64,000 nucleotides of DNA from Candidatus Pacearchaeota archaeon (GCA_017609405.1 JAFCDZ010000002.1:22593-86592); one strand, 5' to 3'; positions 29,240-63,688 are shown, counted from the stretch's first letter. Notes: generated from the sequence alone by a model not told the origin. Program-made: numbers and translations.

Positions 29240-29311
29240 ACGCCCACGCCGGGAGTCGAACCCGGATTACGACCGCGACAGGGTCGTGTCATAGCCGCTA
29301 GACCACGTAGG
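29240..29311 (-). tRNA. tRNA-Asp (anticodon GUC)
   Basis: Hand-folded: GCCTACG..anticodon arm CGACC-CTGTCGC-GGTCG..T-arm CCGGG-TTCGACT-CCCGG..CGTGGGC-G. 72 nt. Confidence 0.9.
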
Positions 29312-29560
29312 CATTTTACAATCAGTAATAATTCTTACTCAAAAATATTTTTAAAGGTTTTGCTTTGGTCGGTTTTGTTGAAAAGTTTGTTTAATATAAA
29401 CTAATATGAGGTTAATAGACAATCATCATAAGAAGGGTTCAACAAGTGCTTTTAGTTTTTAGTAATGTCAAGCAAAACTTTCATTCTGAATCTTTCGTTT
29501 CTATACTATTATAATTCTTTTCAAACTTCTAATGATTAATTGTTTTTTAACTAAACAGAT

Positions 29561-47451: not shown

Positions 47452-48261
47452 TTTTATTTTTCCTTTTTGAATATCTTGAATTATTTTTCTTGCAGTTTTA
47501 TCTGTATCAACTTCTCCTTTTTTTCTTAAAAATTTCAATTTTAATCCTATCTCTTCAAGAGTCTCTTCAGGATCTTCTTTTTTTTCAACTCCATAAAATT
47601 TTTCAAGAACCCCGTCATGTTCTTGTATAAATCTTTCTACAAACATCTCTGGGTTTTTCACCTTGTCAACAGTTTTTACAGAGATTTTTATCTGTTTGAG
47701 TAGATTATCAAATCTTTTTTTCATTTCATCTTCTGGAATTATTCCAGGAGAATCCAACAAGACTATTTTTCTCGTCAATCTTATTTTTTGCATACCTTTT
47801 GTTATTCCGGCTTGCTGTCCTGTTTTTGCAGACGACCTTCCAATAAGTGCATTAATAATTGAACTCTTTCCTGTGTTTGGATATCCCACAACACCAACTA
47901 CAATTCTCTCATCTTTCTTTATTTTTTTTGCAATAATTTTAATTAATGTCCTCAATTTTGAAATATTCTTTCTCTCTCTAGCAGAAATCATGACAAAAGG
48001 AGACAATTTTTCAGCTCTTATTTTGCTTAAGGCCTCTTTTTCATTTACTAAATCGCTTTTATTAATAACATAGATTATCTTTTTTTCTTTTATTTTCTCT
48101 TCAATAATAGAATTCCTTGTTTCATTAATAAATCTTGAATCTAAAACATATAGAAGAATATCTGAAAAATTTATTACATCTTCAAGAACATTTAGAAATC
48201 TCTTTTTTTTTGTTTTTGGAGTTCTTTCTAATTTGCGACCCATTTTAAAATTTTCCGCCAA
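47446..48261 (-). CDS. circularly permuted GTPase (YlqF/RbgA-like ribosome biogenesis GTPase)
   Basis: G4 NKSDL comes before G1 GYPNTGKSS and G3 DSPG, which is the permuted order. Confidence 0.8.
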   Translation of the reverse strand: MAENFKMGRKLERTPKTKKKRFLNVLEDVINFSDILLYVLDSRFINETRNSIIEEKIKEKKIIYVINKSDLVNEKEALSKIRAEKLSPFVMISARERKNISKLRTLIKIIAKKIKKDERIVVGVVGYPNTGKSSIINALIGRSSAKTGQQAGITKGMQKIRLTRKIVLLDSPGIIPEDEMKKRFDNLLKQIKISVKTVDKVKNPEMFVERFIQEHDGVLEKFYGVEKKEDPEETLEEIGLKLKFLRKKGEVDTDKTARKIIQDIQKGKIKL

Positions 48262-48634
48262 GCCCCTCTATTTCTTCTTCAAGTTCTTTTATTTTCTCTT
48301 TTAACTCCTTAATTTTTTTTCTGTTTCTTAATTTATCTACAATATCATAAAAAGTGTTATTCTTTGATTCAATAACCTTTATTTTTTCAGGTTCCTTAAC
48401 CTCATTTATTTTCTTTTTTATATGTTTATTCTTCTCTTTCAGAATATCACTTAATTTTTTAACTTTGATTGGTTTTGTTTTTTCAATTTCTTCTTTTTTC
48501 TTTAGATATTTAATAAGAAGCAATATTGCAACTATGCAAATTATTCCAATTAATAATACCCAAAGCCTTATAGATACCTCATAATTCAACAAAGATGATA
48601 AAGTGTATCTTGCTTCTCCAGTTTTATTTATCAT
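48245..48634 (-). CDS. membrane-anchored coiled-coil protein
   Basis: One N-terminal TM helix followed by a K/E-rich helical region. Confidence 0.45.
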   Translation of the reverse strand: MINKTGEARYTLSSLLNYEVSIRLWVLLIGIICIVAILLLIKYLKKKEEIEKTKPIKVKKLSDILKEKNKHIKKKINEVKEPEKIKVIESKNNTFYDIVDKLRNRKKIKELKEKIKELEEEIEGLGGKF

Positions 48635-48668
48635 ATTTCAAAATATTTCTTAAGATATAAAAAACTTA

Positions 48669-49442
48669 CTATATGGATTCTTTAAGTTCGTTGAGATAAT
48701 ACTTTCCAGCGATTGTATCTATTTCTATTGTCTGTTTTTTGTTATTTTTTGAAGATATTTGTTTAAATAAAATTACAATTAAAATAATTAATCCACAAAA
48801 AATAAATGACAATAATAACCATTTTAAAAAACTAACAGAATTTTTAAAAAGTAGGGGGATATTTTTTAGAATTCTTGAAGAGTCTTTTTTTGGATATTCT
48901 TTTTTCTCAGTTAAATCTTGATAAACCTGAAGATTATATTTTTCAGAAGGACTAAAAGATAACACCGAACTATTTGTTCCTTCTAATTTTATAACATAAT
49001 CAGTTTCTTTTGTTGATACTTCTTGACCATTAAAAATAGAAGATATCTTTAAACTATAATTTCCCGGGAGGAATGCATTCTCATTAAAGAAAATTCTATA
49101 ATATTGCTTTTTCCAAAGACCTCCATAACCTGCTTTAAATATTGTTTGATTTCTTTTTTCTAATGCAATTCCGATACAACTCTCAGTTCTTATACCTTCT
49201 TTATCAAAAAAGCAAAGATATTTTTTTTTGTCATAAACAGGACCATTAAAATTAATAATTATTTTTTCAATATTCTCCAATCCCCCCTCCCCTGTTGAAA
49301 ATTTGATAAAAAAATCAACATAAACGAGGTTTTCTTCTTTCCCATAACTTACCTCTGGTGATGGAGAATAATCAATTTTTATAGCAAAAATACTGCTTAT
49401 TAAAAATAATGACATAATAAATAAAGCACACTCTTTTCTCAT
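48669..49442 (-). CDS. secreted/anchored hypothetical protein
   Basis: The ATG at 49442 gives a signal-peptide-like MRKECALFIMSLFLISSIFA. There is a C-terminal TM helix. Confidence 0.5.
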   Translation of the reverse strand: MRKECALFIMSLFLISSIFAIKIDYSPSPEVSYGKEENLVYVDFFIKFSTGEGGLENIEKIIINFNGPVYDKKKYLCFFDKEGIRTESCIGIALEKRNQTIFKAGYGGLWKKQYYRIFFNENAFLPGNYSLKISSIFNGQEVSTKETDYVIKLEGTNSSVLSFSPSEKYNLQVYQDLTEKKEYPKKDSSRILKNIPLLFKNSVSFLKWLLLSFIFCGLIILIVILFKQISSKNNKKQTIEIDTIAGKYYLNELKESI

Positions 49443-49591
49443 ATCAAATATTAGCACACAAGTTTTATAAAGTTTGTTGGTTGATTTATTCAGAATTATA
49501 AATTTGATAATAATGTTAAATACAAAATTTAAGGAAGCACTATTCAGCAAATAAAGGGCTTTTTTTACTCAAGACTTTTCAACAACACGAG

Positions 49592-51829
49592 CTATTCAAC
49601 AATTTTAAACGAGATTCCTGGATTTTCATTTACACCAAAGATATATATCTCTGTGTTATTGTATAAAAGAGTAAAATAATTTTCATTGAAAAATACATCT
49701 CTTAAATCTTCTTTTCTTATTACTATTACTGCCGAATCTATTCTACTTTCTCTTTCAATCCACTCTTTTGAGAATCTTTTTTCACAGATTCCTTTAATCC
49801 CTAAAACACAGGGTCCATAAAATTTTGTATACATTTCATTATTTAGTATATCTTTTATTTTTGAATAAGTTCTGAGAGAGTCCTCTTGTGAGAAAATAGA
49901 TGAAACAAGCCTGTTCATAAACTTCTTTTCTTCACTTTGCCCAACAGGTTTAATATATGGCATTATTTTTAATCCCGATATTGACGCTAATTGATAATAT
50001 GTTAAAATATCAATAGAAGATTTTGCAGGAGATATTATGATTGTATCTTTTGTTAAATGCTTACTCATCCAATTTCCAGCATTATAACAAGAAGGTTCAA
50101 CCGTACTATAATAACCATTTTCATTCTCCCACCACTTCATATAGGAAAAACTTGGAATAATACTAAACATAATGATTGTGGAAAACACCATAATTAAGGT
50201 TATCTTCTTAAAATAATCAAGATAACTTTTCTTTTTTGTAGGAAATAGGTAAAGAACTTCTATTGATTTTCCAATAAATAATGACATAAACACTATTAAA
50301 ATTCCAAAAGACCTATACACCCCAATATCTAATAAAAATAAACTTATTCCAGTTAAAACAATAAGAACCCCCAATAAAGGTCTAATCTCTCTTTTTGAAT
50401 CAATTAGATAATATAACAGACCAAAGAAAAAAAACAACCAGAAAAAAAGATTAATATAAACATTTCCAAAAGAATTATCCAAAACTCTTTTTTTTGTAAA
50501 AATACCAACAAGGTCTTTTATTCTTTCATTAAATGTTTGATAAAGAACAGAGTTAGTATTTGTATGAACTAAAAAATTAGTTATCTTTGCGATATTTAAG
50601 ATACCAAAAAATTGTAAAAATGCTAATAAGAATAATGTCATAAATAAAATAACAAGAAGAATGTCTCCTATTTTTGGAAATCTGTCTTCAAGAAATATAA
50701 AGAATAAATAAACTAAAAGGATAACACTAACTAAAAGACCCATTAAAATATGATTAAAGAATAAAATACTAATAATTAAAATTATAATAAAATAATACTC
50801 TTTCTTGTTTCCTTTTATAAAAAAAGTTGATATAAGAATTAAAAAAACAATAATTGAAACTATCAAATAATGAATCGGGCCAATTGAAAAAAGATTAAAA
50901 ATTTTGTTAGACATTATTCCAAAAAGTAAAAGAATAATTGTGCCAAAAACAGAGAAGGATTTAATAATATCTTCCCTATTTTCTTTTTCACATACTTCTT
51001 TTTTAAAATATCTATTTATCATACCAAATATAAATGGGGTTGAAATAAAGATTATTGATTTTGGAGCAACTAAGAATGGTGAACCAATCTCTCTTGTTGA
51101 AAGGATTATTAAGAAGCAAAAAGAGATAAGAAAAGATATCTCTCTTTTTATTCTAAAGCCATTTAAGAAATAAAAGATGCCTGTTAAAAAAAGAAATGGG
51201 AATAAAAAGTGAGCATAGAACCAGCCAAGGGAGAAAACATCAAGATTATATAAATAAGAATTAAGAGCAATAAAAATTGAAATACTATCAATATAAGCAA
51301 AACTTCTGAAAATCTGTGAATAATTTAAAACATAATTTGCTAAATGGGCGTGGGTGTATAAAAAATCCCAAGTTACCCACAACGGGAATTTATTAAATCT
51401 CAAAACAAATAACGAAACACCAAAGGATAGAATTAACAAAATAAAAAAAGTAATCAAAGAATTTCGCGATACCTCAATGAAATTTTCCTCTTTTTTCAAA
51501 AATTTATAAAAGTAATAAACAAAATAAAATCCAAAAATAATAACTGAAAGATTAAATAAATTAAACAGGTTAATAGAATACAAAGATATAGCAAGACCTA
51601 TTATTAATAAAAATCCGAGAGACCATGAAATAAAAAAATAACCAATAAAATCAATTTTCTTTTTGATTTTTCCGAGGTTCTCCAAAAAAATATTTCCCAT
51701 CAAATAGGGCAAGATAATAAAAAAGGGAATAGCAAAAATTGCTTTTAAAATAATTGAAGATAAGAAAAAACTAATCATAATACTTATCAGAGTATATAAA
51801 AAAAATATTTTCTCTAATTTTATTCTCAT
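49592..51829 (-). CDS. large polytopic membrane protein, GT-C-like (possible divergent oligosaccharyl/glycosyl transferase)
   Basis: At least 13 hydrophobic helices followed by a soluble C-terminal domain that begins KWWENENGYY. The gene lies inside a glycosyltransferase cluster. The family assignment is tentative. Confidence 0.4.
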   Translation of the reverse strand: MRIKLEKIFFLYTLISIMISFFLSSIILKAIFAIPFFIILPYLMGNIFLENLGKIKKKIDFIGYFFISWSLGFLLIIGLAISLYSINLFNLFNLSVIIFGFYFVYYFYKFLKKEENFIEVSRNSLITFFILLILSFGVSLFVLRFNKFPLWVTWDFLYTHAHLANYVLNYSQIFRSFAYIDSISIFIALNSYLYNLDVFSLGWFYAHFLFPFLFLTGIFYFLNGFRIKREISFLISFCFLIILSTREIGSPFLVAPKSIIFISTPFIFGMINRYFKKEVCEKENREDIIKSFSVFGTIILLLFGIMSNKIFNLFSIGPIHYLIVSIIVFLILISTFFIKGNKKEYYFIIILIISILFFNHILMGLLVSVILLVYLFFIFLEDRFPKIGDILLVILFMTLFLLAFLQFFGILNIAKITNFLVHTNTNSVLYQTFNERIKDLVGIFTKKRVLDNSFGNVYINLFFWLFFFFGLLYYLIDSKREIRPLLGVLIVLTGISLFLLDIGVYRSFGILIVFMSLFIGKSIEVLYLFPTKKKSYLDYFKKITLIMVFSTIIMFSIIPSFSYMKWWENENGYYSTVEPSCYNAGNWMSKHLTKDTIIISPAKSSIDILTYYQLASISGLKIMPYIKPVGQSEEKKFMNRLVSSIFSQEDSLRTYSKIKDILNNEMYTKFYGPCVLGIKGICEKRFSKEWIERESRIDSAVIVIRKEDLRDVFFNENYFTLLYNNTEIYIFGVNENPGISFKIVE

Positions 51830-51830
51830 T

Positions 51831-53066
51831 TTATTTCCCCTCTTTTTTGTTATGTAATGATAATTTTTTATAAATCTTTTCAATTTTTTCAATTATCTTT
51901 TTTTCATTAAACTTTTTTACAAAATCCCTATAAGCATTTTTTCCCATTTTTTTTAGAATTTTTTTATTTTTCATGAGCTTATTTAATATCTCCTTTAATT
52001 GTCTTTTATCTCCAACATTAAATAAATATCCATTATAACCCTCTTTTATTAATTCTGGATTCCCTCCAATATTTGTTGCAACTACAGGGATTTCGCTTCT
52101 AAAATTCTCTAAAATTGACATCGAGCAGTTTTCAAAATAAATTGAAGGGACAATTCCAACATCCATTTCTTTTCTAAATTCTTCTAATTTTTCATTTTTT
52201 ATATTTCCGTAAAAAATTATTCTTTTGTCATTTTCAGCAATTTTTTTAAAATAATCTTTTATCTTCTTTCGCCCTTCTCCAAAAAAATGTATTCTTATGT
52301 TATTATCTTTTATTTCTTTGACTGCTCTTATTATGGTTTGTCCACCTTTGTGTAATTGATATCCTCCTGTAAAAATAATATCAAAAGTTTTTTTCTTCTC
52401 ATCACTTTTTTTATTTTTTTTATCCTCTAAAAAATTATATATGACTTCTTTTTTTGAATTTTTGAAAAACCCTTCTTTTTCATAAATATCCTTTATTGCT
52501 TTTGTAGGAAAAATAACCACTTCTGGTTTTGCTATCATCTTGTTTATTTTTGAATATGCTTTTGATATCATCTTGTAAACAAAACTATTCATTAAGGGAT
52601 ATCTTATTCCAGCAATTTCATCTAATTCAGGTAAATTATTCATTGGGAAAATCAGGTTTATGCTATGTATTGTTACAATAATTGGTATATGTGCTCTTTT
52701 CACTGCAGAATAAACAGAGAGAGATAAATAAGGAATTTCATGTATATGGACCACATCTGGTTTTTCTTTTTCTAATATCTTTTTTATTTTAAAATAGGAG
52801 TCCGGATTCCAAAAATTTAAAACAAAGGTTCTTAATCTTCCCATTAAAGAAATCTTATTTCTTCTTAAAAAAGGAATCCATACGCCAAAAGGATAAATGC
52901 GATATATTTTTATTCCTTGGCTATCTTTAAAAAAGCTTTTTCCAGTTGTTATTATTATAACCTCATGCCCCCTTCTTTTTAGAGACTCTGCAAGTATCTT
53001 AGTATATATAGTTGAGCCACCAATTTCATAAGGAGGATATGCAAAATTAATCAGGCAGATTTTCAT
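51831..53066 (-). CDS. GT4-family glycosyltransferase
   Basis: The N-terminal MKICLINFAYPPYEIGGS pattern and a C-terminal GT-B block (PSIYFENCSMSILENFRSEIPVVATNIGGNPELI). Confidence 0.8.
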   Translation of the reverse strand: MKICLINFAYPPYEIGGSTIYTKILAESLKRRGHEVIIITTGKSFFKDSQGIKIYRIYPFGVWIPFLRRNKISLMGRLRTFVLNFWNPDSYFKIKKILEKEKPDVVHIHEIPYLSLSVYSAVKRAHIPIIVTIHSINLIFPMNNLPELDEIAGIRYPLMNSFVYKMISKAYSKINKMIAKPEVVIFPTKAIKDIYEKEGFFKNSKKEVIYNFLEDKKNKKSDEKKKTFDIIFTGGYQLHKGGQTIIRAVKEIKDNNIRIHFFGEGRKKIKDYFKKIAENDKRIIFYGNIKNEKLEEFRKEMDVGIVPSIYFENCSMSILENFRSEIPVVATNIGGNPELIKEGYNGYLFNVGDKRQLKEILNKLMKNKKILKKMGKNAYRDFVKKFNEKKIIEKIEKIYKKLSLHNKKEGK

Positions 53067-53067
53067 T

Positions 53068-53526
53068 TTAAAATATCTCTCCAAAATAAATCCTTCTTTT
53101 TTTATCTAATTTCTCTAATTCATAAAAAAGAGAGAGTATTAAAACAAATAATATAACAAAAAAAAGGATTATCTCAATTGAAAAAGAAATTTTATAAATT
53201 AAGCAAGAAGTTATAATCACTGCTAAAGTAATTATGCTTATAATTAAAACTTTTAATTTTTCTTCTCTTGTTAGGATAATTCTTTTTATATCAAAATAAT
53301 CAAAATCTTCATCAAAATAATCTAATTCTCTTTTTTTAATTTTTCTTTTTTCTAAAAAAAGCGAGAAAATAAATAAACTTAAACTTGTGATAAACAACAA
53401 GACAGGATTAAAATAATTCCTCATTGAAGGGAAAAATAAAGATATAAAAAAAAGAAATATAAAAAAACTAATCAAATATGCTGAGAGGTCTTTTATTAGA
53501 TATTCAATAAATTTTATCTTTTTCAT
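53068..53526 (-). CDS. hypothetical membrane protein
   Basis: Four hydrophobic helices. The ATG at 53526 abuts the upstream stop. Confidence 0.45.
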   Translation of the reverse strand: MKKIKFIEYLIKDLSAYLISFFIFLFFISLFFPSMRNYFNPVLLFITSLSLFIFSLFLEKRKIKKRELDYFDEDFDYFDIKRIILTREEKLKVLIISIITLAVIITSCLIYKISFSIEIILFFVILFVLILSLFYELEKLDKKRRIYFGEIF

Positions 53527-53527
53527 T

Positions 53528-54931
53528 TTAAAAAGATATCTTCGATGGCCCCTTATTATCATATATTCTTAGAATATCATACTTAAAGAATTCTTCAATC
53601 TTACCTATATTTCCAATAAGTTTTAAATTCTTTTCAGAACTATTTATCTGTTTGACAAATTTGATCTCTTTTATTATCTTGCATTTATTATTTTCACACT
53701 CTTCTATCTTTTTATATTGATCTTTTTTTACACTATCTACTTTTGTTTTATTATCTTCATAGATAAAAATAATGTATTTATAATTTTCAAAAAATTTAAT
53801 TCCACAAGCAATAGGTTTTATTGTTTTTGATTCATCCTGTTTATGATAAAAAGGGAATATCTCTATGAATCTTTTATTTTTATAGACTTTTACAGAAACC
53901 CCTGCTTTAATAGATAAATCATCTTTATTTGTCCAAGAAACAATCATTTCATAACCTTTATTTTTGTTATCTTCTGTTAGTTCTGAGATTATTATGTCTT
54001 TTCTTGCATTCTTATAATCTAACCAACTTTCGTTATGTTCCTTTTTAGTATCTTCAGACAATACTCTTTTCCATTTACCATCAATATTAAAAATCAATTC
54101 CCACGGAGAAATATAAAAAATTTCTCTGTTTTCATTGAATATATGTATTCCATCAGTATTTTTTCTTGATGTTGCTATCTCAAAAAAATAATCTTCATCA
54201 TCTTTTTTTTCATCTATCTTTATGAAGATTTTTTTTGTTTTGTTGTATAATCCATAAACTCTTGTTAGATAAATTAATGAATTTGAATCTGTATATATTT
54301 TATTAAAGGAGCCAAAGATATCTGCAGAGTAGTTATCTGATTCTAATGAGATATAATCTCTTGTGTTTTGAGGTATTTTTATCCTATCTAAATTTATAAA
54401 TCCTTTTCTATCATTCAAGTTTATTATTCTTCCATTTTGAAGAACTAATTTATCAAATTTCTCTGGCCAGTTCTTTTTGTTTACCAAACCTAAGCTATGC
54501 TCTTCTATTTTTTCTGGTCTTGAAAAATTTCCATCAATTTCATAGGTTATTAAACTTCCTTCTAATGAATAAACTTCTCTTACAAATGAGGGGTCTTTTG
54601 TTTTATTTGAGTATTCAATTATTAATTTATTCATTTCAACATTTATTTTTTTGTTATCTTCACCACTAAACCAAGATTTTTTTCCAGAAGGGCTATAAAT
54701 TAATTTTTCCACCCCATTGTATTTTAACAAGGATTGCCATGGGCTTATTACAAACAATTTTTGATTATTAACATAGACATTAATGTATGGCTCCTTAGTA
54801 ATTTTATCAACTTCAATAACCATATCTCTATTTTTTATAACATAAGGAGTATTCCTTGGACTGAGAGCAAATAAAATAACTAAAATCAGAAACAATACAA
54901 AACTCACCTCTCTTATTTTATTTTTATTCAT
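53528..54931 (-). CDS. hypothetical secreted/anchored protein
   Basis: 467 aa with an N-terminal hydrophobic anchor. No family recognised. Confidence 0.5.
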   Translation of the reverse strand: MNKNKIREVSFVLFLILVILFALSPRNTPYVIKNRDMVIEVDKITKEPYINVYVNNQKLFVISPWQSLLKYNGVEKLIYSPSGKKSWFSGEDNKKINVEMNKLIIEYSNKTKDPSFVREVYSLEGSLITYEIDGNFSRPEKIEEHSLGLVNKKNWPEKFDKLVLQNGRIINLNDRKGFINLDRIKIPQNTRDYISLESDNYSADIFGSFNKIYTDSNSLIYLTRVYGLYNKTKKIFIKIDEKKDDEDYFFEIATSRKNTDGIHIFNENREIFYISPWELIFNIDGKWKRVLSEDTKKEHNESWLDYKNARKDIIISELTEDNKNKGYEMIVSWTNKDDLSIKAGVSVKVYKNKRFIEIFPFYHKQDESKTIKPIACGIKFFENYKYIIFIYEDNKTKVDSVKKDQYKKIEECENNKCKIIKEIKFVKQINSSEKNLKLIGNIGKIEEFFKYDILRIYDNKGPSKISF

Positions 54932-55228
54932 ATCTTAATAAGTTTCTTCTTGTTTTTAAGTTTAACTTTTAGCTAAGTTCTATTGAAAATTTTCGTGTTA
55001 ATTGTATAAATATTCTAAGGTAGGCTCAGTACTTAGAGTTATCCCAATAATCTTTATGACTACAGTGTTCAGTGGGCATAGTTTGGATAACAATTTTAAG
55101 AGAATTTTTTATAGTGTTTCTTATTCTGTTCAACCTAACACTAAAACATCTATAAACCAAACCAGAAATGTTGAATTTATCTTTTTAGGCCTAATTAAAT
55201 ATTTAAATAACTTAATTTTTTTTAAGTA

Positions 55229-56047
55229 ATGGAAGAATGTAAAACAATTGTTATACTTGGATATGGAAGATCTGGAACATCTCTTGTTGCAGGAATCTTG
55301 AATAGTCTTGGAATAAATATGGGTGAAAGATTATATGAAAAAGATTCTTTTAATCCTTTGGGTTATTTTGAAGATGTTGATTTTATGTGGTTGAATAACG
55401 AGATTCTTGAAAGAGTATTACAAAAGAATTCAATTTACGATGGATTTAATAATCTTCCACCAAAAAGGGAAGAAATCTTGAAACAGAATAAAAAATTCTC
55501 TAAAAAAATAAGGAAACTAATAAAAAAGAAGAACAAATCAAAAGTCTGGGGATGGAAGCATCCTCTAACAGCTTTAACAATAGACCTTTTTTTACCTTAT
55601 TTAAGGAATCCCTATTTTATTGTTTGTAAAAGGAGAAAGACAGATATCATAAAATCTGTTCTTAAAATTAAAAAAAACAATATAAACCACATATCAAAAG
55701 TAATAGATGCTTATAATGAAAGGATAAATAATTTTTTTACAAGGCATAAACACCTTAAAAAATTAGAGGTAAAATATGAGAATCTTATCAAAACACCTCA
55801 AAAAGAAATTAGAAAAATAATTGATTTTCTTGAAATTTCTCCAACAAAAGAAGAGTTTGAAAAAGCAGTTAGGATGGTCTTACCTAAGAAAAGAATTAAA
55901 AGATTCTCAAATAAACTAAAAAATGATAAAAAAATAAAATTAAAGAGGTTAATTTATTATTTCAGATGGTGTGTTAATTATCCTAATAAATTTTTAAGAA
56001 TTCCAAGAGTGCTTTATAGAAGAATATTTAATATTTCCAATACTTAA
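55229..56047 (+). CDS. sulfotransferase-family protein
   Basis: The N-terminal VILGYGRSGTSLVAGIL resembles the PAPS 5'-phosphosulfate-binding loop of bacterial sulfotransferases. Size and basic composition are consistent with that family. Confidence 0.5.
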   Translation: MEECKTIVILGYGRSGTSLVAGILNSLGINMGERLYEKDSFNPLGYFEDVDFMWLNNEILERVLQKNSIYDGFNNLPPKREEILKQNKKFSKKIRKLIKKKNKSKVWGWKHPLTALTIDLFLPYLRNPYFIVCKRRKTDIIKSVLKIKKNNINHISKVIDAYNERINNFFTRHKHLKKLEVKYENLIKTPQKEIRKIIDFLEISPTKEEFEKAVRMVLPKKRIKRFSNKLKNDKKIKLKRLIYYFRWCVNYPNKFLRIPRVLYRRIFNISNT

Positions 56048-57011
56048 CTTCTTTTTTAATTCCTTCTATAAGCGAGATGAATAATTTTTTTTGAAAAAGG
56101 TCTTTGTCTTTTATTTTTCTTCTTTTTTGTATCCATTTCCTTTTTTTGATTATTTTTTTTAAGTTCTTTAATACAAATATATTTGCATGAATAATTTTTT
56201 TAACTGATTTAAAATCAAGATGAATTGTGTATCTTAACATTTCTAAGGCATTATAAAGAGTAGTTATTATGAGAGAGATAACAAGATTATGGCCTTCAAA
56301 ATTTTTTATAGCAGTTTGTAATTGATTTTTTATTATATGAAATAAGAATTTTCTCCTCTTTTCTTCATCGTCATCCTTGTTTCTAAAAACAACTGCTTCT
56401 TCTGCCAAAACAACTTTGTGACCCATTAACCAAGCCCTCCAACAAAAGTCTACTTCTTCATTATACATGAAATATTCTTCATCAAAACCACCCAATTCTT
56501 CAAATAGCTTTTTTTCAATCAAGATAGAAGAACCACAAGCATATCCTAATTCCACCCCCTTAAGGTTCTTTTCCACTGTCCCTCCGCCTGTGAGGGTAAA
56601 GTATCCGCCTATAGTGTTTATATCATTTGTTTTTTTATCAACATTTTTTGAGCCAACAACTTTTATCTCTTTTTTAGATAATGCCTTTTTCATTAGTTCT
56701 TTTAACCAGTTTTTATCTACAATGATATCTTGATTTAAGAATACAATATAATCTCCTTTACAATATTTTACAACAAGGTTATTTCCTTTTGCATAACCAT
56801 AATTCTTATACAATTCTATTATCTTTATCTTTGGAAATTTTTTTCTTATCTCTTTGATAGAGTTATCTTCTGAATTATTATCTGCAACAATTATTTCATA
56901 TTTATTTTTTGGATATTCTATCTTTTTTAAAGATTCAATACACTTTGGTGTGAGATCCTTTCCATTATAATTTAAAACGACAATACTAACAAAAGGCATT
57001 ATCTGTTTCAT
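56028..57011 (-). CDS. GT2-family glycosyltransferase
   Basis: VSIVVLNYNGKDLT..IIVADNNSEDNS and a DxD-like region. The ATG at 57011 overlaps the upstream stop by 4 nt. Confidence 0.85.
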   Translation of the reverse strand: MKQIMPFVSIVVLNYNGKDLTPKCIESLKKIEYPKNKYEIIVADNNSEDNSIKEIRKKFPKIKIIELYKNYGYAKGNNLVVKYCKGDYIVFLNQDIIVDKNWLKELMKKALSKKEIKVVGSKNVDKKTNDINTIGGYFTLTGGGTVEKNLKGVELGYACGSSILIEKKLFEELGGFDEEYFMYNEEVDFCWRAWLMGHKVVLAEEAVVFRNKDDDEEKRRKFLFHIIKNQLQTAIKNFEGHNLVISLIITTLYNALEMLRYTIHLDFKSVKKIIHANIFVLKNLKKIIKKRKWIQKRRKIKDKDLFQKKLFISLIEGIKKEVKYWKY

Positions 57012-58192
57012 TTTATTGCTCGAGCACTTTCTGCGGTTTTCCATTTGATATATTCTTTTCCTTTGAAATATTCCTTCCATGAAATTAGGATTATTACTTC
57101 AATTAAAGTTAAAAATTCAATGATTGAGATAATTTTATTTTTCTTCTTTTTTGTTTCTAAATATAAAATGAATATAAGAGATAACAACAAGAATTCAAAT
57201 AAGATTATTAATAAGAATATTTTATTTAATAAAATAATAATCCCGATTCCTGAGAAGATTATTCCAAGAACTAAAAAAGGAGATAGTAAGGGAATAATCT
57301 TAATTGAAAAGATTGAAAGAAAGACTAATGGATATTTTAGAATATTCATAAGTCTAATATTTTTTCTAATGATCTTTATTGTTTCAACAAGAGTTCTTTT
57401 CTTTTGTAAAATAAAATCCTCCTTGTTTTTAACAGAGTATTTCTCAGCTTTTATTGAAGTTTCATAGAAATTTTTATAGCCTTTTTTTATTATTAGTAAA
57501 CCAAACTCCCAGTCAGATAATGAGAAATATCCTTCTTTTCTTGCAATTAATTTCTTCCTAAACGCTTGAAACCACCCATAAGAATTTGTAAAACAACCAA
57601 TTTTACTTTCATTTTTATAGATAAATTGAAGATAATCTTGATGAATTTTTGAGCCAAAACTTTCTGGTGTTTTTTCGTTTGTTATATATGAATATCTTGA
57701 ACCTACACCCCCAATTTTTTTATCTTTAAAGTGTCTAAGAGAAGCTTTTAATATGTTCTTTTCTAAAAAAGCATTTGCATCAGTAATAACAATTATATCA
57801 TATCTTGAATTTTTTATTCCACTTTTTATTGCCTTACTCTTTCCTTCTCTTTCTTGTCTTATTATTTTTAAGTTCTTCAACTTATTTTTTTCTTTGATTT
57901 TTCTTACTGTTTCATAAGTTTTATCCTCTGAGCCATCATCAACAATGATTATCTCATATTTTGTTTTTGGATAATCTAACTGTAATGTATTTTCTATTTT
58001 TTTCTTAATGACTTTCTCCTCATTATAGCAAGGAATTATAATTGAAACCTCGGGTTGATAATTATCATCATATTCATATTTTTCCTTTATTATTTTTGAT
58101 AAAACCCATATAAAGAGGGGGTAACCTATAATTGACCATAACAACAAAGAAATACACATAACAAATATAATTAATAAAATTTGGAGTATCAT
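57008..58192 (-). CDS. membrane-embedded GT2 glycosyltransferase (processive-synthase-like topology)
   Basis: N-terminal TM helices, VSIIIPCYNEEKVI..IIIVDDGSEDKT, and C-terminal TM helices. Confidence 0.8.
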   Translation of the reverse strand: MILQILLIIFVMCISLLLWSIIGYPLFIWVLSKIIKEKYEYDDNYQPEVSIIIPCYNEEKVIKKKIENTLQLDYPKTKYEIIIVDDGSEDKTYETVRKIKEKNKLKNLKIIRQEREGKSKAIKSGIKNSRYDIIVITDANAFLEKNILKASLRHFKDKKIGGVGSRYSYITNEKTPESFGSKIHQDYLQFIYKNESKIGCFTNSYGWFQAFRKKLIARKEGYFSLSDWEFGLLIIKKGYKNFYETSIKAEKYSVKNKEDFILQKKRTLVETIKIIRKNIRLMNILKYPLVFLSIFSIKIIPLLSPFLVLGIIFSGIGIIILLNKIFLLIILFEFLLLSLIFILYLETKKKKNKIISIIEFLTLIEVIILISWKEYFKGKEYIKWKTAESARAIK

Positions 58193-59313
58193 TCTAATCC
58201 CATTATTCCTATCATCCACGATGAAAATATTATCTGTAATCCAGAGGTAATTAAGGTCATACTGACTATCATAAGTCTTACATGGTGCAGTTCCCCCTTT
58301 ATCCAAAAATTATATAAAATTGAAAGAAGCATGAAACCATTTAAAAAAATCAGGAATCCAATTAAACTCCCAATTTCTACAACACCTTTTTTCTTTAAAA
58401 TTCTTATTGTGAAATTTTCTTCTATTATTTGTTTTGAATATAAATATGCCTTTGAAAAGATCCAAAAAAAGAGGATTTGTAATCCAAGGATAAAGAGAAA
58501 TGAGCCAATGATAAGAGGATGAATATCAAGTGGCATTGAAAATAAAAAGACTTCTTTTCTAACTAATAAAAGCATTAAGAATAATCCAAATAACAGGAAA
58601 AAAGTTCCTGGTAAAAGAAATAACCAATCTGGAGCAAGTAAAAGCATAAATCTTAGATGTCTCCATCCATCGCGAAAAGTTCTTAATTTTGATTCAGAAT
58701 CCTTATGTCTCGGATTATATCTTACTGGGATTTCTTTTATTTTGATTTTTTCTTTTGATACTTTTGCCATAATTTCAGAAGCAAATTCCATTCCACCAGA
58801 ATTCAAATTTATTTTTTTTAAAGCATTTCTTGATATTGCTTTAAATCCACAATGAACATCAGAGAATTTTGTTTTGAAAAAAAGGTTAAATAAAAAGGTG
58901 AGTATTGGATTTCCAATGTATCTATGTAAAAAGGACATCTTTTTAGAAGAGGTTTTATCCTTGAATCTGCTTCCATTCACAAACTCATAACCTTTGTTAA
59001 TCATTTGTTCTAGGAACTTTGGAATATCTCGTGGATCATGCTGTCCGTCAGCATCCATCATTATGATATACTTACCTTTTGCATCTCTTAAGCCCCTTAA
59101 AAGAGCATTACCATATCCTCTTTTCTCTTCAAAAATGACCTTTGCTCCTGCTTTTTTTGCCTCTTTCTCAGAATTATCAGTTGAATTATTATTAACAACA
59201 ATTATCTCATAACTTAAACCTTCTTTTTCAAGAATTTTTTTTGTGTCTTTTATAAGATTTCTTATAGTTTTTTCTTCATTTAGACAAGGTATTACAATAG
59301 ACACTTCAACCAT
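58189..59313 (-). CDS. GT2 polyprenyl/dolichyl-phosphate glycosyltransferase-like protein with a C-terminal membrane domain
   Basis: VSIVIPCLNEEKTI..IIVVNNNSTDNS..MMDADGQHDP, followed by 4 TM helices. Confidence 0.8.
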   Translation of the reverse strand: MVEVSIVIPCLNEEKTIRNLIKDTKKILEKEGLSYEIIVVNNNSTDNSEKEAKKAGAKVIFEEKRGYGNALLRGLRDAKGKYIIMMDADGQHDPRDIPKFLEQMINKGYEFVNGSRFKDKTSSKKMSFLHRYIGNPILTFLFNLFFKTKFSDVHCGFKAISRNALKKINLNSGGMEFASEIMAKVSKEKIKIKEIPVRYNPRHKDSESKLRTFRDGWRHLRFMLLLAPDWLFLLPGTFFLLFGLFLMLLLVRKEVFLFSMPLDIHPLIIGSFLFILGLQILFFWIFSKAYLYSKQIIEENFTIRILKKKGVVEIGSLIGFLIFLNGFMLLSILYNFWIKGELHHVRLMIVSMTLITSGLQIIFSSWMIGIMGLE

Positions 59314-60426: not shown

Positions 60427-60846
60427 TTATTTTTCCCCCCATGCAACAATACCTAATACAATTAGATAAAAAATTACCCCAATTAATCCAACATAAGGGA
60501 ACCAACTTATTAACTGAGCTAATGCCCACCATCCAGGATAGTTTAAAGATTCAAAAACTTTCCAATTAGCAATAATTAAGAGGACCTGTAAAGGAATCCA
60601 ACCTAATAAAGGTATTAAAATTAAAAATACCCATGCCCAATGAAATCCCCCTAATTGTAATAATAAGCTAATATTTGCTACAGGTATCCAAGCTAACCAG
60701 GGATATGGATGGTTCTTTTTCTTTGCAATTTTCATCCATGCAAGTGAGGAATAAACATATAAACCTATTGCAATTGTTGCAGCAATTATCCCAAATAAAA
60801 TAATCATTGGTCCTGCTATATTTTCATTAATCATTTGTTGAAACAT
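60427..60846 (-). CDS. hypothetical membrane protein
   Basis: 139 aa with four hydrophobic helices and many Trp residues. Confidence 0.5.
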   Translation of the reverse strand: MFQQMINENIAGPMIILFGIIAATIAIGLYVYSSLAWMKIAKKKNHPYPWLAWIPVANISLLLQLGGFHWAWVFLILIPLLGWIPLQVLLIIANWKVFESLNYPGWWALAQLISWFPYVGLIGVIFYLIVLGIVAWGEK

Positions 60847-60931
60847 TTTATTTCACCTCCTTTCACTTTTTTACAAGGCAGTTTTTTCAAATCCCTGCTG
60901 GATTAATAATCCTATGGGACCTGCCTTAGGT

Positions 60932-60953
60932 TAAATGAGCCTGCGCGGATTTG
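60932..60953 (-). repeat. 22-nt direct duplicate of the tRNA-Ile 3' end
   Basis: taaatgagcctgcgcggatttg is identical to 61036-61057. Confidence 0.9.
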
Positions 60954-61035
60954 GGCCTCACAGTTACTCTGTTGCTCGACCTGATACGCTTGCTCGTTAC
61001 ACTCGCAATCATATCAAACCGCGAGCGGTTCAAAG
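60954..61035 (-). other. 82-nt GC-rich insert between tRNA-Ile and its duplicated 3' end
   Basis: Starts with ggcctcacag...tcgacctgatacgctt, which it shares with the Lys-locus insert. Ends with ccgcgagcggttcaaag, an inverted copy of the tRNA-Ile T-arm. Confidence 0.7.
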
Positions 61036-61039
61036 TAAA

Positions 61040-61114
61040 TGAGCCTGCGCGGATTTGAACCGCGGACCCCTACCTTATCAGAGTAGTGCTCTAACCTGGC
61101 TGAGCTACAGGCTC
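61040..61114 (-). tRNA. tRNA-Ile (anticodon GAU)
   Basis: Hand-folded: GAGCCTG/TA/GCTC-AGCCAGGTTA-GAGC/A/CTACT-CTGATAA-GGTAG/GGGTC/CGCGG-TTCAAAT-CCGCG/CAGGCTC/A. 75 nt. Confidence 0.9.
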
Positions 61115-61161
61115 ATGGTTTTAGTAGCCAGACGGGTTTTAGCGGAATCTTTGATTCCAGC

Positions 61162-61187
61162 CTAACCTGGCTGAGCTACAGGCTCAT
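61162..61187 (-). repeat. 26-nt direct duplicate of the tRNA-Ile 5' end (2 nt of leader plus positions 1 to about 22)
   Basis: ctaacctggctgagctacaggctcat is identical to 61091-61116. The two copies are separated by a 45-nt spacer (61117-61161). Confidence 0.9.
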
Positions 61188-61300
61188 TTTTATATAATTA
61201 TGATATCTAAAAACATTTAAAAAATTATGGTTTTTGAGTTTTAGAATATTTAAGGATAATAATTGATTTTTAATTCTTACTATCCAAATAAACAAGAGGC

Positions 61301-61964
61301 TCATACAGGAAGGTGATAACTTATATTCCTCTCTGGAACTAAAATTCTTAGAGAATGAGTTGTTCTAATTTTTGAAAAGCCATGATCCGATTGGCGATAG
61401 AGGTAAGGTTTTTTTGCAGGAGTATAACCATGAAGGAAAATTTCATGGTCTTTTGTCATTTCAACTATCAAATCTCCTAACTTTTTTTCAAATCTTTCTA
61501 AATTACCTCTATTTAATGTAGTCTGTTCTCGAATTCTCCTGGCAGTTTTCCATTCTTCGTGTTCTGTCTGTGGATATTCTACTAATAATGCATGTGTGTG
61601 ATATTCTAAACCAATTTTTTGGTTTCTAGACAATAACTGTCTTTCGAGATCTCTAAGCCAGGAGGAATTTAGGATATCTAAAAAATGAACATGTTCTAAT
61701 TCTTTAAATTTATCTAGAGCAATATATAAACCCGTAGCAATTGCTTTACTACCCCTTCTTTTAACTGTTATAAAACCCCCATCCTCTAATGAATTCCTTA
61801 ATCCCCCACGTTAATCTATTAATTAATTGTCCATATATCTGTTCAGGAAGAATAAGTTCTTCAACTCCTGTCATATCTTCATAAGGCTCTCCTTGAAATC
61901 TTTTTAATAGGGGTATCATGCTTTCAAAGAATACTCTAATGCTTATAAGATTTCCTATCAGCAT
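61301..61964 (-). pseudogene. hypothetical gene split by a frameshift (ORFs 61761-61964 and 61301-61633 plus a startless in-frame extension)
   Basis: The frame of the downstream ORF stays open upstream to about 61795 with no start codon, and it overlaps the end of the upstream ORF in another frame. The junction lies at two C5/G5 homopolymer runs (about 61775-61790). Confidence 0.5.
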
Positions 61965-62490
61965 CCAAAAACTCTTTTAACTTATTCAATGCAATTCTTC
62001 TCATACTAATTGAATTTTTTTCTTCTTGTGTCATTTCTGCAAAAGTTTTTGTAGAGCCTTCTGGTTTAAAAATAGGGTCCCATCCAAAACCATTCCCAGA
62101 GCTTGGGGCAACAATCTTCCCTTTTATTGAGCCTTCAAAAAAATAAATATTGTCTTTAAAATAACCAATTATTGTTTTTGCTTCTGCATTATAATTTCCA
62201 AAAGTTTCTGCAATTTTATACAGCCCCTCATTGCCGATTGTTTTCATAAACCATTTAATTAAAGGACCTGGAAGACCATTTAGGCAATCAAAGTATAATG
62301 AAGTATCTTCAACAATAAATTCTGCTTTTTTATGTTTCAAGGCTTCAAGAAGTTTTGAGCGAATAATTTCTTTTGCATCAATGCTTTGGATTTCTGGCAA
62401 ATCAATATCTAATTGCTCAAGCTCAGGAATTATGGATTTAGCTTCTCTGAACTTATTTTTGTTTCCTGTTATGAAAAATATTCTTTTCAT
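61936..62490 (-). CDS. non-canonical purine NTP pyrophosphatase (HAM1/RdgB family)
   Basis: FITGNKNKFREA, EDTSL and GFGWDPIF motifs. 184 aa. Confidence 0.9.
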   Translation of the reverse strand: MKRIFFITGNKNKFREAKSIIPELEQLDIDLPEIQSIDAKEIIRSKLLEALKHKKAEFIVEDTSLYFDCLNGLPGPLIKWFMKTIGNEGLYKIAETFGNYNAEAKTIIGYFKDNIYFFEGSIKGKIVAPSSGNGFGWDPIFKPEGSTKTFAEMTQEEKNSISMRRIALNKLKEFLDADRKSYKH

Positions 62491-62491
62491 C

Positions 62492-63688
62492 TTAATGAGT
62501 TACAATTTCTAAAGCATCTCTGTGCTTCAAAACATAATCTTTTCCAAGTGCTTTTTTTGTTCTGGCGTCAATTGCTTTAATGAAATTTTTTCCAAAATCA
62601 GTATGAAGAAAGTAAGCAAAGTCAAGTGCAGTAGAGCCTGGAGGCAATAAAAAACAATCTGGAAGAATATTTCCTTTTGAATCTGAGAGTTTGGTTGCAG
62701 AAGCAGGAAAAACAGCAACATAACCAAGAAGCTCAAATACAGCAGAGTTTAAAACATCCTGAACACCTGTGCTTCCATAGATTTTTAGGACATTTTCTCG
62801 AATCTTCTCTAATGCTTGTTTTTGTTTATCATTTAACTCTCCGATTATCTTGAAATCACTCTCTCCAGGAATATACTCAATTAATCCTGCTTTTGCTGCT
62901 TCTCTTAATGCTAATTCAGAATCTGCAGAGCAAGGGATAATTTTGATGTCTGGAAATTCCTTTTTCATTTTTTCAATATTTTCTTTTGCTTGGGGGTGGT
63001 CACACTTATTTGCAGCAATAATCATTGGCTTTGATTCTTTTCTTAATTCAGAAGCGAACTCAAAAATTTGCTCTTCACTCCAATTACTCGGAGATTCTGG
63101 AAGTGATAATTTTAATAAAACTTTCTTAACTTGCTCTTCATTAACTTTTAATCCAGAAAACTGAGTTGCAACTGCTTGAGAAAAACTTGGACCTCCTTGC
63201 TGTTTGCTTTCTAATTCTGCTTTTCTTGCAAAAGTTTTCCAAACTTTCATAAAAATATTATAATACCATTTATCTAATTCTTCGTTCAAAAACCTAATAT
63301 CTTCGCAAGGGTTATGGCCTTCTGTTTGTTTTCCTTCAATGTCTGTTGTTCCAGATGCATCAACTATGTGAATAAAAACATCTGCTTGTCTTAAATCATC
63401 TAAAAATTGATTTCCTAACCCTTTTCCTTCAGAAGCTCCAGGAACTAAACCAGCAACATCCATTAATTCAATTGGAACAAACCTTTTATGATTAATGCAA
63501 AATCCATGAGATGGGTTGCATTGAACACCGAATTCTTTGTCTATGCAATCAACTTTAACATAACCAACTCCATGATTTGGCTTGATTGTAGTAAAAGGAT
63601 AAGACGCGATTTCAACTTCTGCAAGAGTCGCTGCTTTAAAAAAAGTGGATTTTCCAACACTTGGCTTTCCAACTAATCCTAAAAGCAT
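62492..63688 (-). CDS. ychF: Obg-like ATPase/GTPase of the YchF/OLA1 family with a C-terminal TGS domain
   Basis: G1 [20 protein letters not shown] and NKCD, plus a C-terminal TGS-like beta-grasp domain. Confidence 0.85.

Follow-up and report, generated by a model that had tools for sequence, protein, structure and literature searches.

The window, i.e. the whole 64-kb stretch of DNA analysed here, has a G+C content of approximately 30% and carries core archaeal genes, among them those for RpoB, aIF5B, GluRS, SerRS, the thermosome, a YGR210-type GTPase and Ham1. On its minus strand, at 61114-61040, lies an intact and intron-less tRNA-Ile(GAU) gene that is bracketed on both sides by copies of its own ends. 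Rfam RF00005 recognises this gene over the full model with 68.3 bits as an uninterrupted sequence of 75 nt, ARAGORN also detects it and calls the anticodon GAT, and it represents the functional gene of the locus. Compared to the genes of the related genomes L006, L029, L033, L037 and L044, it differs only in the T-stem. Read along the minus strand, a 26-nt copy of the 5' end comes first and is succeeded by a 45-nt spacer, the intact gene, an 82-nt spacer and a 22-nt copy of the 3' end. The 5' repeat, ATGAGCCTGTAGCTCAGCCAGGTTAG, occurs exactly twice in the 64 kb, at 61187-61162 and 61116-61091, and 100 shuffles gave no match to it even when three mismatches were allowed. The 3' repeat, CAAATCCGCGCAGGCTCATTTA, is likewise present in exactly two copies (61057-61036 and 60953-60932), with none expected from shuffles even at three mismatches. 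Both repeats overrun the mature tRNA, by 2 nt of the leader (AT) and by 4 nt of the trailer (TTTA), respectively: the outer 5' copy (61187-61162) consists of AT and the first 24 nt of the tRNA gene, and the outer 3' copy (60953-60932) extends from C56 in the T-loop to the discriminator A73 followed by TTTA. The lengths and positions of the outer copies, the spacers and the intact gene had already been reported in the first-pass annotation of the locus and all of them hold, with both repeats being exact and unexpected by chance.

The two spacers are structured inserts. In the 5' insert (61161-61117, minus strand, 45 nt), the outer 5' copy is directly followed by the hairpin GGAATCAAAGATTCC (61158-61144), and further inside lies GTCTGGCTAC (61133-61124), an imperfect inverted copy of the D-arm region. 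The 3' insert (61035-60954, minus strand, 82 nt, fold stability z = -2.7) is composed of three parts. It opens with CTTTGAACCGC (61035-61025), an inverted copy of the local T-arm that is perfect over 10 of 10 positions (GCGGTTCAAA/TTTGAACCGC, 61025-61034 versus 61054-61063), continues with GCGGTT(TGA), a direct partial copy of the T-arm (61022-61014), and closes with a hairpin module (60991-60954), whose right end AAGCGTATCAGGTCGA...CTGTGAGGCC is common to the insert at tRNA-Lys. The inverted partial arm copies beside the gene, including the imperfect nature of the one in the D-arm, correspond to what was noticed before. The outer 3' copy, together with the preceding CUGUGAGGCC, folds into a T-arm-like hairpin with the loop CCCAAAU. 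The outer copies themselves would have no function of their own and would represent non-functional decoy ends.

Some features of the surroundings should be mentioned as well. When window positions 60427-63688 are set beside L055, L036, L023 and other loci, the YGR210-type GTPase gene and tRNA-Ile(UAU) turn out to be divergent neighbours in at least 13 relatives, and in L055 a homologue of the window's 139-aa membrane protein comes after tRNA-Ile(UAU). In the window, tRNA-Ile(GAU) is found in that position, and the genes for the GTPase and Ham1 are co-directional with it, which suggests that a rearrangement or a replacement by a paralogue may have occurred at tRNA-Ile. The neighbouring membrane protein matches a single entry of the protein collection at 100% identity, and its next homologues are approximately 60% identical. 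Between Ham1 and the tRNA unit, two small ORFs of 110 and 67 aa without Pfam match (61301-61964, minus strand) could be gene remnants of such a rearrangement. Since tRNA-Ile(UAU) is the gene type at the matching genomic position in relatives, the outer copies might be taken for the ends of an older tRNA-Ile(UAU) gene; this idea was rejected as too weak, because it is based on a match of only 5 nt (GCTGG) and a loose GAGGCC similarity. The region 48000-58000 has a lower G+C content (0.24-0.26 versus approximately 0.30 elsewhere) with many glycosyltransferase genes and ORFs without Pfam match, and three ORFs of the glycosyltransferase region (56028-57080, 57008-58306 and 58189-59313) overlap by 70-120 nt.

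Splicing and transcription at the tRNA-Ile locus

The D-loop and the T-loop are known places of non-canonical archaeal tRNA introns, and the borders of the duplications fall into these loops. The first-pass annotation had pointed to this and considered unusual 5' processing or splicing. In the corresponding model, the outer copies are exons, and the spacers together with the inner duplicated ends are non-canonical introns cut by the splicing endonuclease. Besides the position of the breakpoints, this model gains from the fact that non-canonical tRNA-Ile introns do occur in the relatives L007 and L030, where they sit in the anticodon stem. However, the bulge-helix-bulge (BHB) motif was found neither among the 27 5'-side nor among the 23 3'-side splice pairs that join an outer copy to the tRNA body. 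The scan was done computationally with a 4-bp central helix, 3-nt bulges and outer as well as inner helices, and included every splice pair restoring the tRNA. Split relic copies at other loci have no BHB either; they reach at most three of the four central pairs and have no flanking helices. Moreover, mature tRNA-Ile can be obtained from the uninterrupted gene without removal or joining of any pieces, and splicing would merely restore an identical sequence. Given the intact gene and the empty BHB scan, we see next to no chance for the exon model. The inserts and end copies at tRNA-Ile are not introns, and the breakpoints in the D-loop and the T-loop mark borders of DNA duplications, not RNA splice sites. 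The locus has these breakpoints in common with non-canonical introns and with split or permuted tRNA genes, as it has the DPANN host and the relatives with unusual tRNA introns. It differs from them not only by the uninterrupted gene and the missing BHB, but also in that no second locus is needed and that the order is unpermuted: a 3' half upstream of a 5' half was found neither here nor in the 22 other cases, the 5' copy being always placed upstream and the 3' copy downstream.

Introns of other kinds were seen in the relatives. In the Pacearchaeota loci L007 (2153-2263) and L030 (186-296), tRNA-Ile(GAU) contains a 36-nt non-canonical intron within the anticodon stem at approximately position 30/31, and ARAGORN miscalls this gene of L007 as tRNA-Ile(TAT). 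Nearly all tRNA-Ile(UAU) genes of the clade (loci L008-L055) have an intron of 33-107 nt, mostly 42-70 nt, at approximately position 37/38. Both its inner hairpin (..TTCGTTAGAA..) and its ends (TATGAC... and ...CTAAGARAG) are conserved, and it may represent a protein-binding or guide element.

Regarding transcription, the AT-rich, TATA-like sequence that had been noticed upstream of the outer 5' copy is TTTTTTAAATG at 61224-61214 on the minus strand. It begins 36 nt in front of G1 of that copy, and no such box is present in the 45-nt spacer that precedes the intact gene. At seven of the nine loci with a 5' copy, among them the window, a TATA-like box precedes the G1 of the outer copy by 29-36 nt, a spacing that we equate with the box position at the relatives' tRNA-Ile genes seen without 5' copy (approximately 24-26 nt upstream); only one of the nine has such a box at 50 nt or less from the inner gene. 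Because the TATA box has the canonical distance to the outer 5' copy, transcription probably starts there. TTTTTTAAATG is then the probable promoter of the whole tRNA-Ile unit, and the primary transcript would obtain a structured leader of approximately 75 nt with a decoy 5' end. This leader, i.e. the outer copy plus the 5' insert, is predicted to form one hairpin (-24.4 kcal/mol, z = -3.6), in which the decoy positions 7-22 are buried. We assume that the promoter stayed with the outer 5' copy, and that RNase P would take off the leader, whose hairpin would sequester most of the decoy. RNase P and RNase Z, i.e. ordinary end processing, suffice for the maturation of tRNA-Ile. The earlier proposal of a start at the outer copy combined with unusual processing is hence supported in its first part by the boxes at seven of nine loci, whereas its second part, unusual processing or splicing, is not, since the gene is intact and no BHB was found.

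Further units in the window and their recurrence in related genomes

The unit at tRNA-Ile is not alone, since three of the four tRNAs in the window (Ile, Lys and Glu) have one. The tRNA-Lys(UUU) unit occupies 27787-27495 on the minus strand, with the gene at 27787-27714 and a 24-nt exact repeat, CAAATCCCGTCGAGGCCATGTTAT, at 27731-27708 and 27518-27495; its 3' copy begins at C56, as does that of tRNA-Ile. The 189-nt insert opens with GATTTGAACCC (27705-27695), again the inverted local T-arm, and ends with the module known from the tRNA-Ile 3' insert (27547-27519). Its final approximately 33 nt are homologous to the latter, and both inserts contain common exact 16- and 17-mers that occur nowhere else in the 64 kb. 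The element CTGTGAGGCC, with which both inserts end, resembles the 3' end of tRNA-Lys, CCGTCGAGGCCA, and three degenerate TGAGGCC motifs inside the Lys insert resemble the Lys 3' end, too. Because of these three motifs, the Lys insert looks like a decayed tandem array, and the module at tRNA-Ile looks as if it was derived from it. The tRNA-Glu(UUC) unit (60023-59708, minus strand; gene at 60023-59951) has a 12-nt repeat, GGCCGGGGCGTT, at 59960-59949 and 59801-59790 around an insert of approximately 147 nt, whose right end, TGCAGGCTTGAG (59815-59804), is similar to the 3' end of tRNA-Ile. A further hairpin of this unit, GAGATTCGAAGGAGGAGAGTTCGAAT (59733-59708), is nearly identical to a hairpin that L024, an unrelated genome, has in its tRNA-Asp insert. 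The window's own tRNA-Asp (29240-29313, minus strand) is the sole one of the four without an end copy and has a run of eight T directly at its 3' side.

Outside the window, the 24-nt 5' end of tRNA-Ile(GAU) matches 52 loci in GTDB representative genomes, all of them labelled Pacearchaeota, Woesearchaeota, Nanoarchaeota or similar DPANN archaea, in which the 24-mer is the common 5' end of tRNA-Ile(GAU) and tRNA-Ile(UAU). The window and these 52 related loci, in blocks of up to 8 kb, comprise 85 tRNAs. An exact copy of the tRNA's own end of at least 12 nt was found for 22 of the 85, and one more case was detected with 11-mers. In all of them, the 5' copy is located upstream and the 3' copy downstream, on the same strand and 30-220 nt away; no end copy was found elsewhere in the blocks or on the opposite strand. 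End copies were seen for tRNAs of the types Ile(GAU), Ile(UAU), Lys, Glu, Asp and Gly. Their repeats have lengths of 12-34 nt (12-44 nt over all units), with approximately 14 nt in many units of the relatives, and usually include a few flanking bases; the inserts measure 29-206 nt. Local alignments were made for the 75 tRNAs whose flank extends over 330 nt or more, and were compared with a control orientation: the 3' end is copied downstream in 20 of 75 (control 1 of 75), the 5' end is copied upstream in 11 of 75 (control 1 of 75), and an inverted copy of the 3' region lies downstream in 18 of 75 (control 0 of 75; 24 of 80 in a second count). The tRNA-Ile locus of the window is, hence, an example of a lineage-wide habit.

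The comparison of orthologous loci revealed presence/absence polymorphism. At tRNA-Ile(GAU)-L15e, the site is empty in L033 and L030, two units exist in L044, and one or more in L007, L029 and L006. Arrays and decay were observed in L026, L029, L016, L006, L037 and L044, in addition to the degenerate motifs of the window's Lys insert. Decayed copies are seen in L044, and a degenerate 5' copy lies behind the TATA box of L007; the perfect tandem units in L026, L006 and L037 point to secondary slippage. In L016 (5205-5790), four related units form an array behind tRNA-Ile(UAU), and those further along the array end in a different tRNA-like 3' end, CCTGGATGGCCCA; the L016 unit recurs on the metagenome contig L078.

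Slippage between repeats, as in the perfect tandem units, could also belong to a scenario that does without any mobile element. tRNA genes, being highly expressed and prone to form structures, may suffer DNA breaks from replication or transcription conflicts. Fold-back or template-switch repair could then leave behind an inverted copy of the local sequence and a partial duplication, with filler taken from other tRNA loci via T-loop microhomology. The enrichment of the inverted local T-arm downstream of tRNAs is in line with such repair, as are the inverted-then-direct order in the tRNA-Ile 3' insert, which resembles fold-back synthesis, and the position of the breakpoints in loops or at stem-loop borders. 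Furthermore, the right end of the Ile insert looks like a copy taken from the Lys locus, the template switch lying in the CAAATCC that both have in common. However, the snap-back microhomology is missing at several junctions, e.g. in L029 as judged by inspection, and repair filler should not give rise to cross-genome families with compensatory substitutions in their hairpins, which are described below. We regard repair scars as a rather unlikely explanation. The inverted arm copy can, moreover, be understood in two ways. It is also present at nine tRNAs without a direct copy, and in some units (L067, L068) it lies inside the duplicated segment; for these reasons, it may be a pre-existing trailer hairpin that formed part of the target, or otherwise a signature of repair.

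Insert families and the search for an agent

Several GTDB loci contain inserts of one family, which begin with TTCAAATAC, end with CCAAAAWTC-loop-GAWTTTTTAG plus 2 nt and continue into positions 61-73 of the local tRNA. The same pattern was found at 15 metagenome loci; in the readable cases it stands between an intact Ser, Met, Ile, Lys, Thr or Arg tRNA and a copy of the 3' end of that very tRNA, and tandem arrangements also occur. The family was never found as the sole interruption of a gene. We therefore discarded the possibility that the insertions in the relic copies are bona fide T-loop introns, because all 21 family members lie behind an intact 3' end. Among 18 distinct copies, the same two hairpins recur, and the closing dinucleotides of the second hairpin are complementary in 16 of 18, with five pair types. 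As an RNA, the family would appear as a two-hairpin element of 56-85 nt (TTCAAATAC, hairpin, GU, CCAAAAWUC-loop-GAWUUUUUAG) that is present downstream of many tRNAs (L066-L080, L013, L014, L016, L024), and one subfamily has a K-turn-like internal loop (CCUGAG...CGAAUGG) in the first hairpin. Rfam and IMG/VR returned no match for this family, and for the inserts in general only the tRNAs passed in Rfam, with all else scoring far below the gathering score.

These structures raise the question of a selected RNA function. Leader and trailer modules could be co-transcribed with the tRNA and serve the control of folding or processing, termination, or the production of small RNAs released by RNase P and RNase Z, and the outer copies could pair into a processing stem. 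The probable transcription of the leader from the promoter upstream of the outer 5' copy supports this view, and so do the leader and trailer hairpins, which are more stable than shuffles, and the insert family with its compensatory changes and K-turn-like loop. The 271-nt whole region also folds with z = -6.0, and the outer copies pair in an 11-bp helix; however, this helix follows trivially from the duplication of the acceptor-stem strands. In several units, the gene is immediately followed by a T-run, at which transcription should end without reaching the 3' copy. Neither the missing Rfam match nor the absence of units at orthologous loci of relatives and the decay of copies (L044, L007) is in favour of a selected function. 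Furthermore, the modules beside the 5' copy in L041 and beside the 3' copy in L011 are reverse complements of each other (score 33 versus 21 for the best shuffle), and both directly abut the copy. Such a relationship is not expected for inserts with an RNA role and therefore points to the level of DNA, not of RNA. This mirror symmetry was clear for one pair, since the other comparisons of 5' with 3' inserts scored near the shuffle maximum. Altogether, we consider a selected RNA function quite improbable as the origin of the units.

The mirror case has a simple counterpart in the tRNA gene itself. Because the acceptor-stem strands are complementary, the same double-stranded motif, ATGAGCCTG/CAGGCTCAT, is present at both gene ends, and therefore an agent working at the DNA level would act as mirror images at the two ends. 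The search for such an agent in the window gave negative results. Scans of 47 window ORFs against Pfam revealed no integrase, recombinase, transposase, Cas1 or reverse transcriptase, and PolB was not found in the window either. The modules of the window occur there only at tRNA-Lys and tRNA-Ile; no copy was found away from tRNAs or on viral contigs, and a metagenome scan with the window's own module gave no match. Terminal inverted repeats (TIRs) at the insert ends were not seen by eye. In scans of IMG/VR with the two tRNA ends and with three insert modules, we obtained either no match or only chance matches in unrelated high-GC phages, and thus no sign of a virus or plasmid attP as the source. 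Mobile elements of DPANN archaea are poorly sampled.

Direct repeats of tRNA termini caused by integrating archaeal elements are well known, for example the tRNA-Thr fragment of Caldiarchaeum subterraneum (PMC3293823). Accordingly, the units could be what is left after a virus or plasmid with an attP mimicking the 5' or 3' part of tRNA-Ile had integrated and its body had been deleted, i.e. the att repeats and attP arms. Integration at the 5' or 3' terminus of an archaeal tRNA does leave a reconstituted gene and a direct-repeat fragment (PMC3293823), and a terminus repeat on both sides of the insert with one reconstituted gene is what we found at tRNA-Ile. As in SSV-type or pNOB8-type integration, the terminus copy lies on the same strand beyond the insert and the repeats overrun the tRNA ends, as att identity blocks often do; the arrays of related but differing units resemble successive integrations. 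Moreover, modules beside the outer copy are kept between genomes: a 32-nt module adjoining it is identical in L007 and L029, though the flanking genes are only approximately 72% identical. In contrast to the SSV-type and pNOB8-type systems, however, the inserts are non-coding and 29-206 nt long (45 and 82 nt at tRNA-Ile) instead of kilobases, both gene ends are hit, inverted copies of the local arm are included, and neither an integrase nor a fragment of one was found near the repeats or elsewhere in the 64-kb window. All end copies lie 30-220 nt from the tRNA and none at kilobase distance, although blocks of up to 8 kb could miss larger elements. Unlike a fixed attP, the junction between module and tRNA varies (51, 53 and 58 in L029, L006 and L007, respectively). 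Furthermore, the tRNA ends and insert modules gave no meaningful match in IMG/VR, and we know of no process that repeatedly deletes the bodies of elements while sparing both arms. Integrase remnants are, hence, an unlikely source of the units.

Other known systems have a partial resemblance. Casposons are transposons that depend on Cas1; they integrate at 3' ends of tRNA genes and duplicate 14-15 bp of the target. The tRNA-end target, the gene kept intact through a duplicated terminus and the repeats of approximately 14 nt in many relatives correspond to this behaviour; at variance with it are the repeats of 22 and 26 nt at tRNA-Ile (22-26 nt in the window), the insertions at 5' ends and the lack of Cas1, PolB or an evident TIR in the window. 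REP/REPIN and PATE derivatives of IS200/IS605 are small, hairpin-based bacterial and archaeal repeats without long target duplication that are not tied to tRNA termini. They are similar to the units as short non-coding hairpin families with compensatory changes just outside genes, whereas the units are bound to tRNA termini with a long duplication and no Y1/HUH transposase was seen. The features of MITEs or classical transposons, namely TIRs, a duplication of fixed length and dispersed copies, were not found either, the repeats varying between 12 and 44 nt.

Origin and meaning of the tRNA-end units

Considering all evidence, the explanation that we favour, with a probability of roughly 60%, is insertion-duplication at the DNA level by small, non-autonomous, hairpin-defined units at the ends of tRNA genes. 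According to this explanation, an ordinary tRNA-Ile(GAU) gene would have taken two independent insertion-duplications, one per end. In each event, a short hairpin-rich DNA (45 nt at the 5' end, 82 nt at the 3' end) would have been placed inside the terminal part of the gene, with simultaneous duplication of the gene end and 2-4 nt of its flank. The outcome would be one complete gene, with a truncated copy of its end beyond the insert. The units would then spread between tRNA loci, form tandem arrays and decay. As the agent, we propose an element that is itself non-autonomous and depends for its movement on an enzyme encoded elsewhere; this enzyme may recognise the near-palindromic DNA of the acceptor stem, or else hairpins that tRNA genes extrude. 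The exact repeats, which include non-tRNA flank, speak for this scenario, since they are similar to target or attachment-site duplications. Further support comes from the recurrence of the units at other tRNAs, the insert families that cross tRNA types and genomes, the one mirror-image pair, the arrays and their decay, the empty orthologous loci and the spacing of the TATA boxes. Nevertheless, several points speak against it. The repeat lengths vary and no TIRs were seen, unlike in classical transposons; the 47 ORFs contain no gene of the recombinase type, and no copy of the module was detected off tRNAs. A pre-formed element does not explain the inverted copy of the local arm, which is the least explained feature, and the compensatory changes in the hairpins would fit a selected RNA function equally well. 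Also, the empty sites are known from loci of the relatives and not from a close relative at this very tRNA-Ile locus.

A more specific version of insertion-duplication can be imagined, in which the units form a class of miniature mobile elements of DPANN archaea that target only the termini of tRNA genes, are recognised through single-stranded DNA or RNA hairpins and carry along the tRNA-end copy of their previous site. Movement together with such a copy would explain the Lys-like end of the Ile insert and the Ile-like end of the Glu insert. We put this version forward tentatively, as a possibility with clearly less than even odds. An RNA-mediated variant of such elements is also conceivable; two observations touch on it, namely that the inner repeat starts at the predicted transcription start and that the duplicated trailer ends in a T-run at some loci (L007, TTTATTTTTAT).

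Generally, the units appear to represent a lineage-wide class in DPANN archaea of the Pacearchaeota/Woesearchaeota type that is mobile or duplicative. Direct repeats of tRNA termini from integrating elements were known before (PMC3293823). In the literature, we found no description of miniature, two-sided, lineage-wide tRNA-end duplications with one mirror case and conserved structured inserts. Approximately a quarter of the sampled tRNA genes of the clade have miniature end duplications, with families that are common to different loci. From a practical point of view, the units create long structured leaders and decoy ends, and they can mislead tRNA annotation, the prediction of proviruses from att sites and the polishing of assemblies.

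Mobile DNA classically lands at tRNA genes, and the broken, split and multi-intron tRNA genes for which DPANN archaea are known have an unsettled origin. The present findings point to an active process that remodels the termini of tRNA genes and always spares one intact copy. If the units are mobile, they would represent a new kind of tRNA-targeting element. In that case, introns could also be gained and genes be split via an insertion whose rescuing duplicate decays later on, and the units could thereby provide raw material for the non-canonical introns and split tRNA genes of these archaea.
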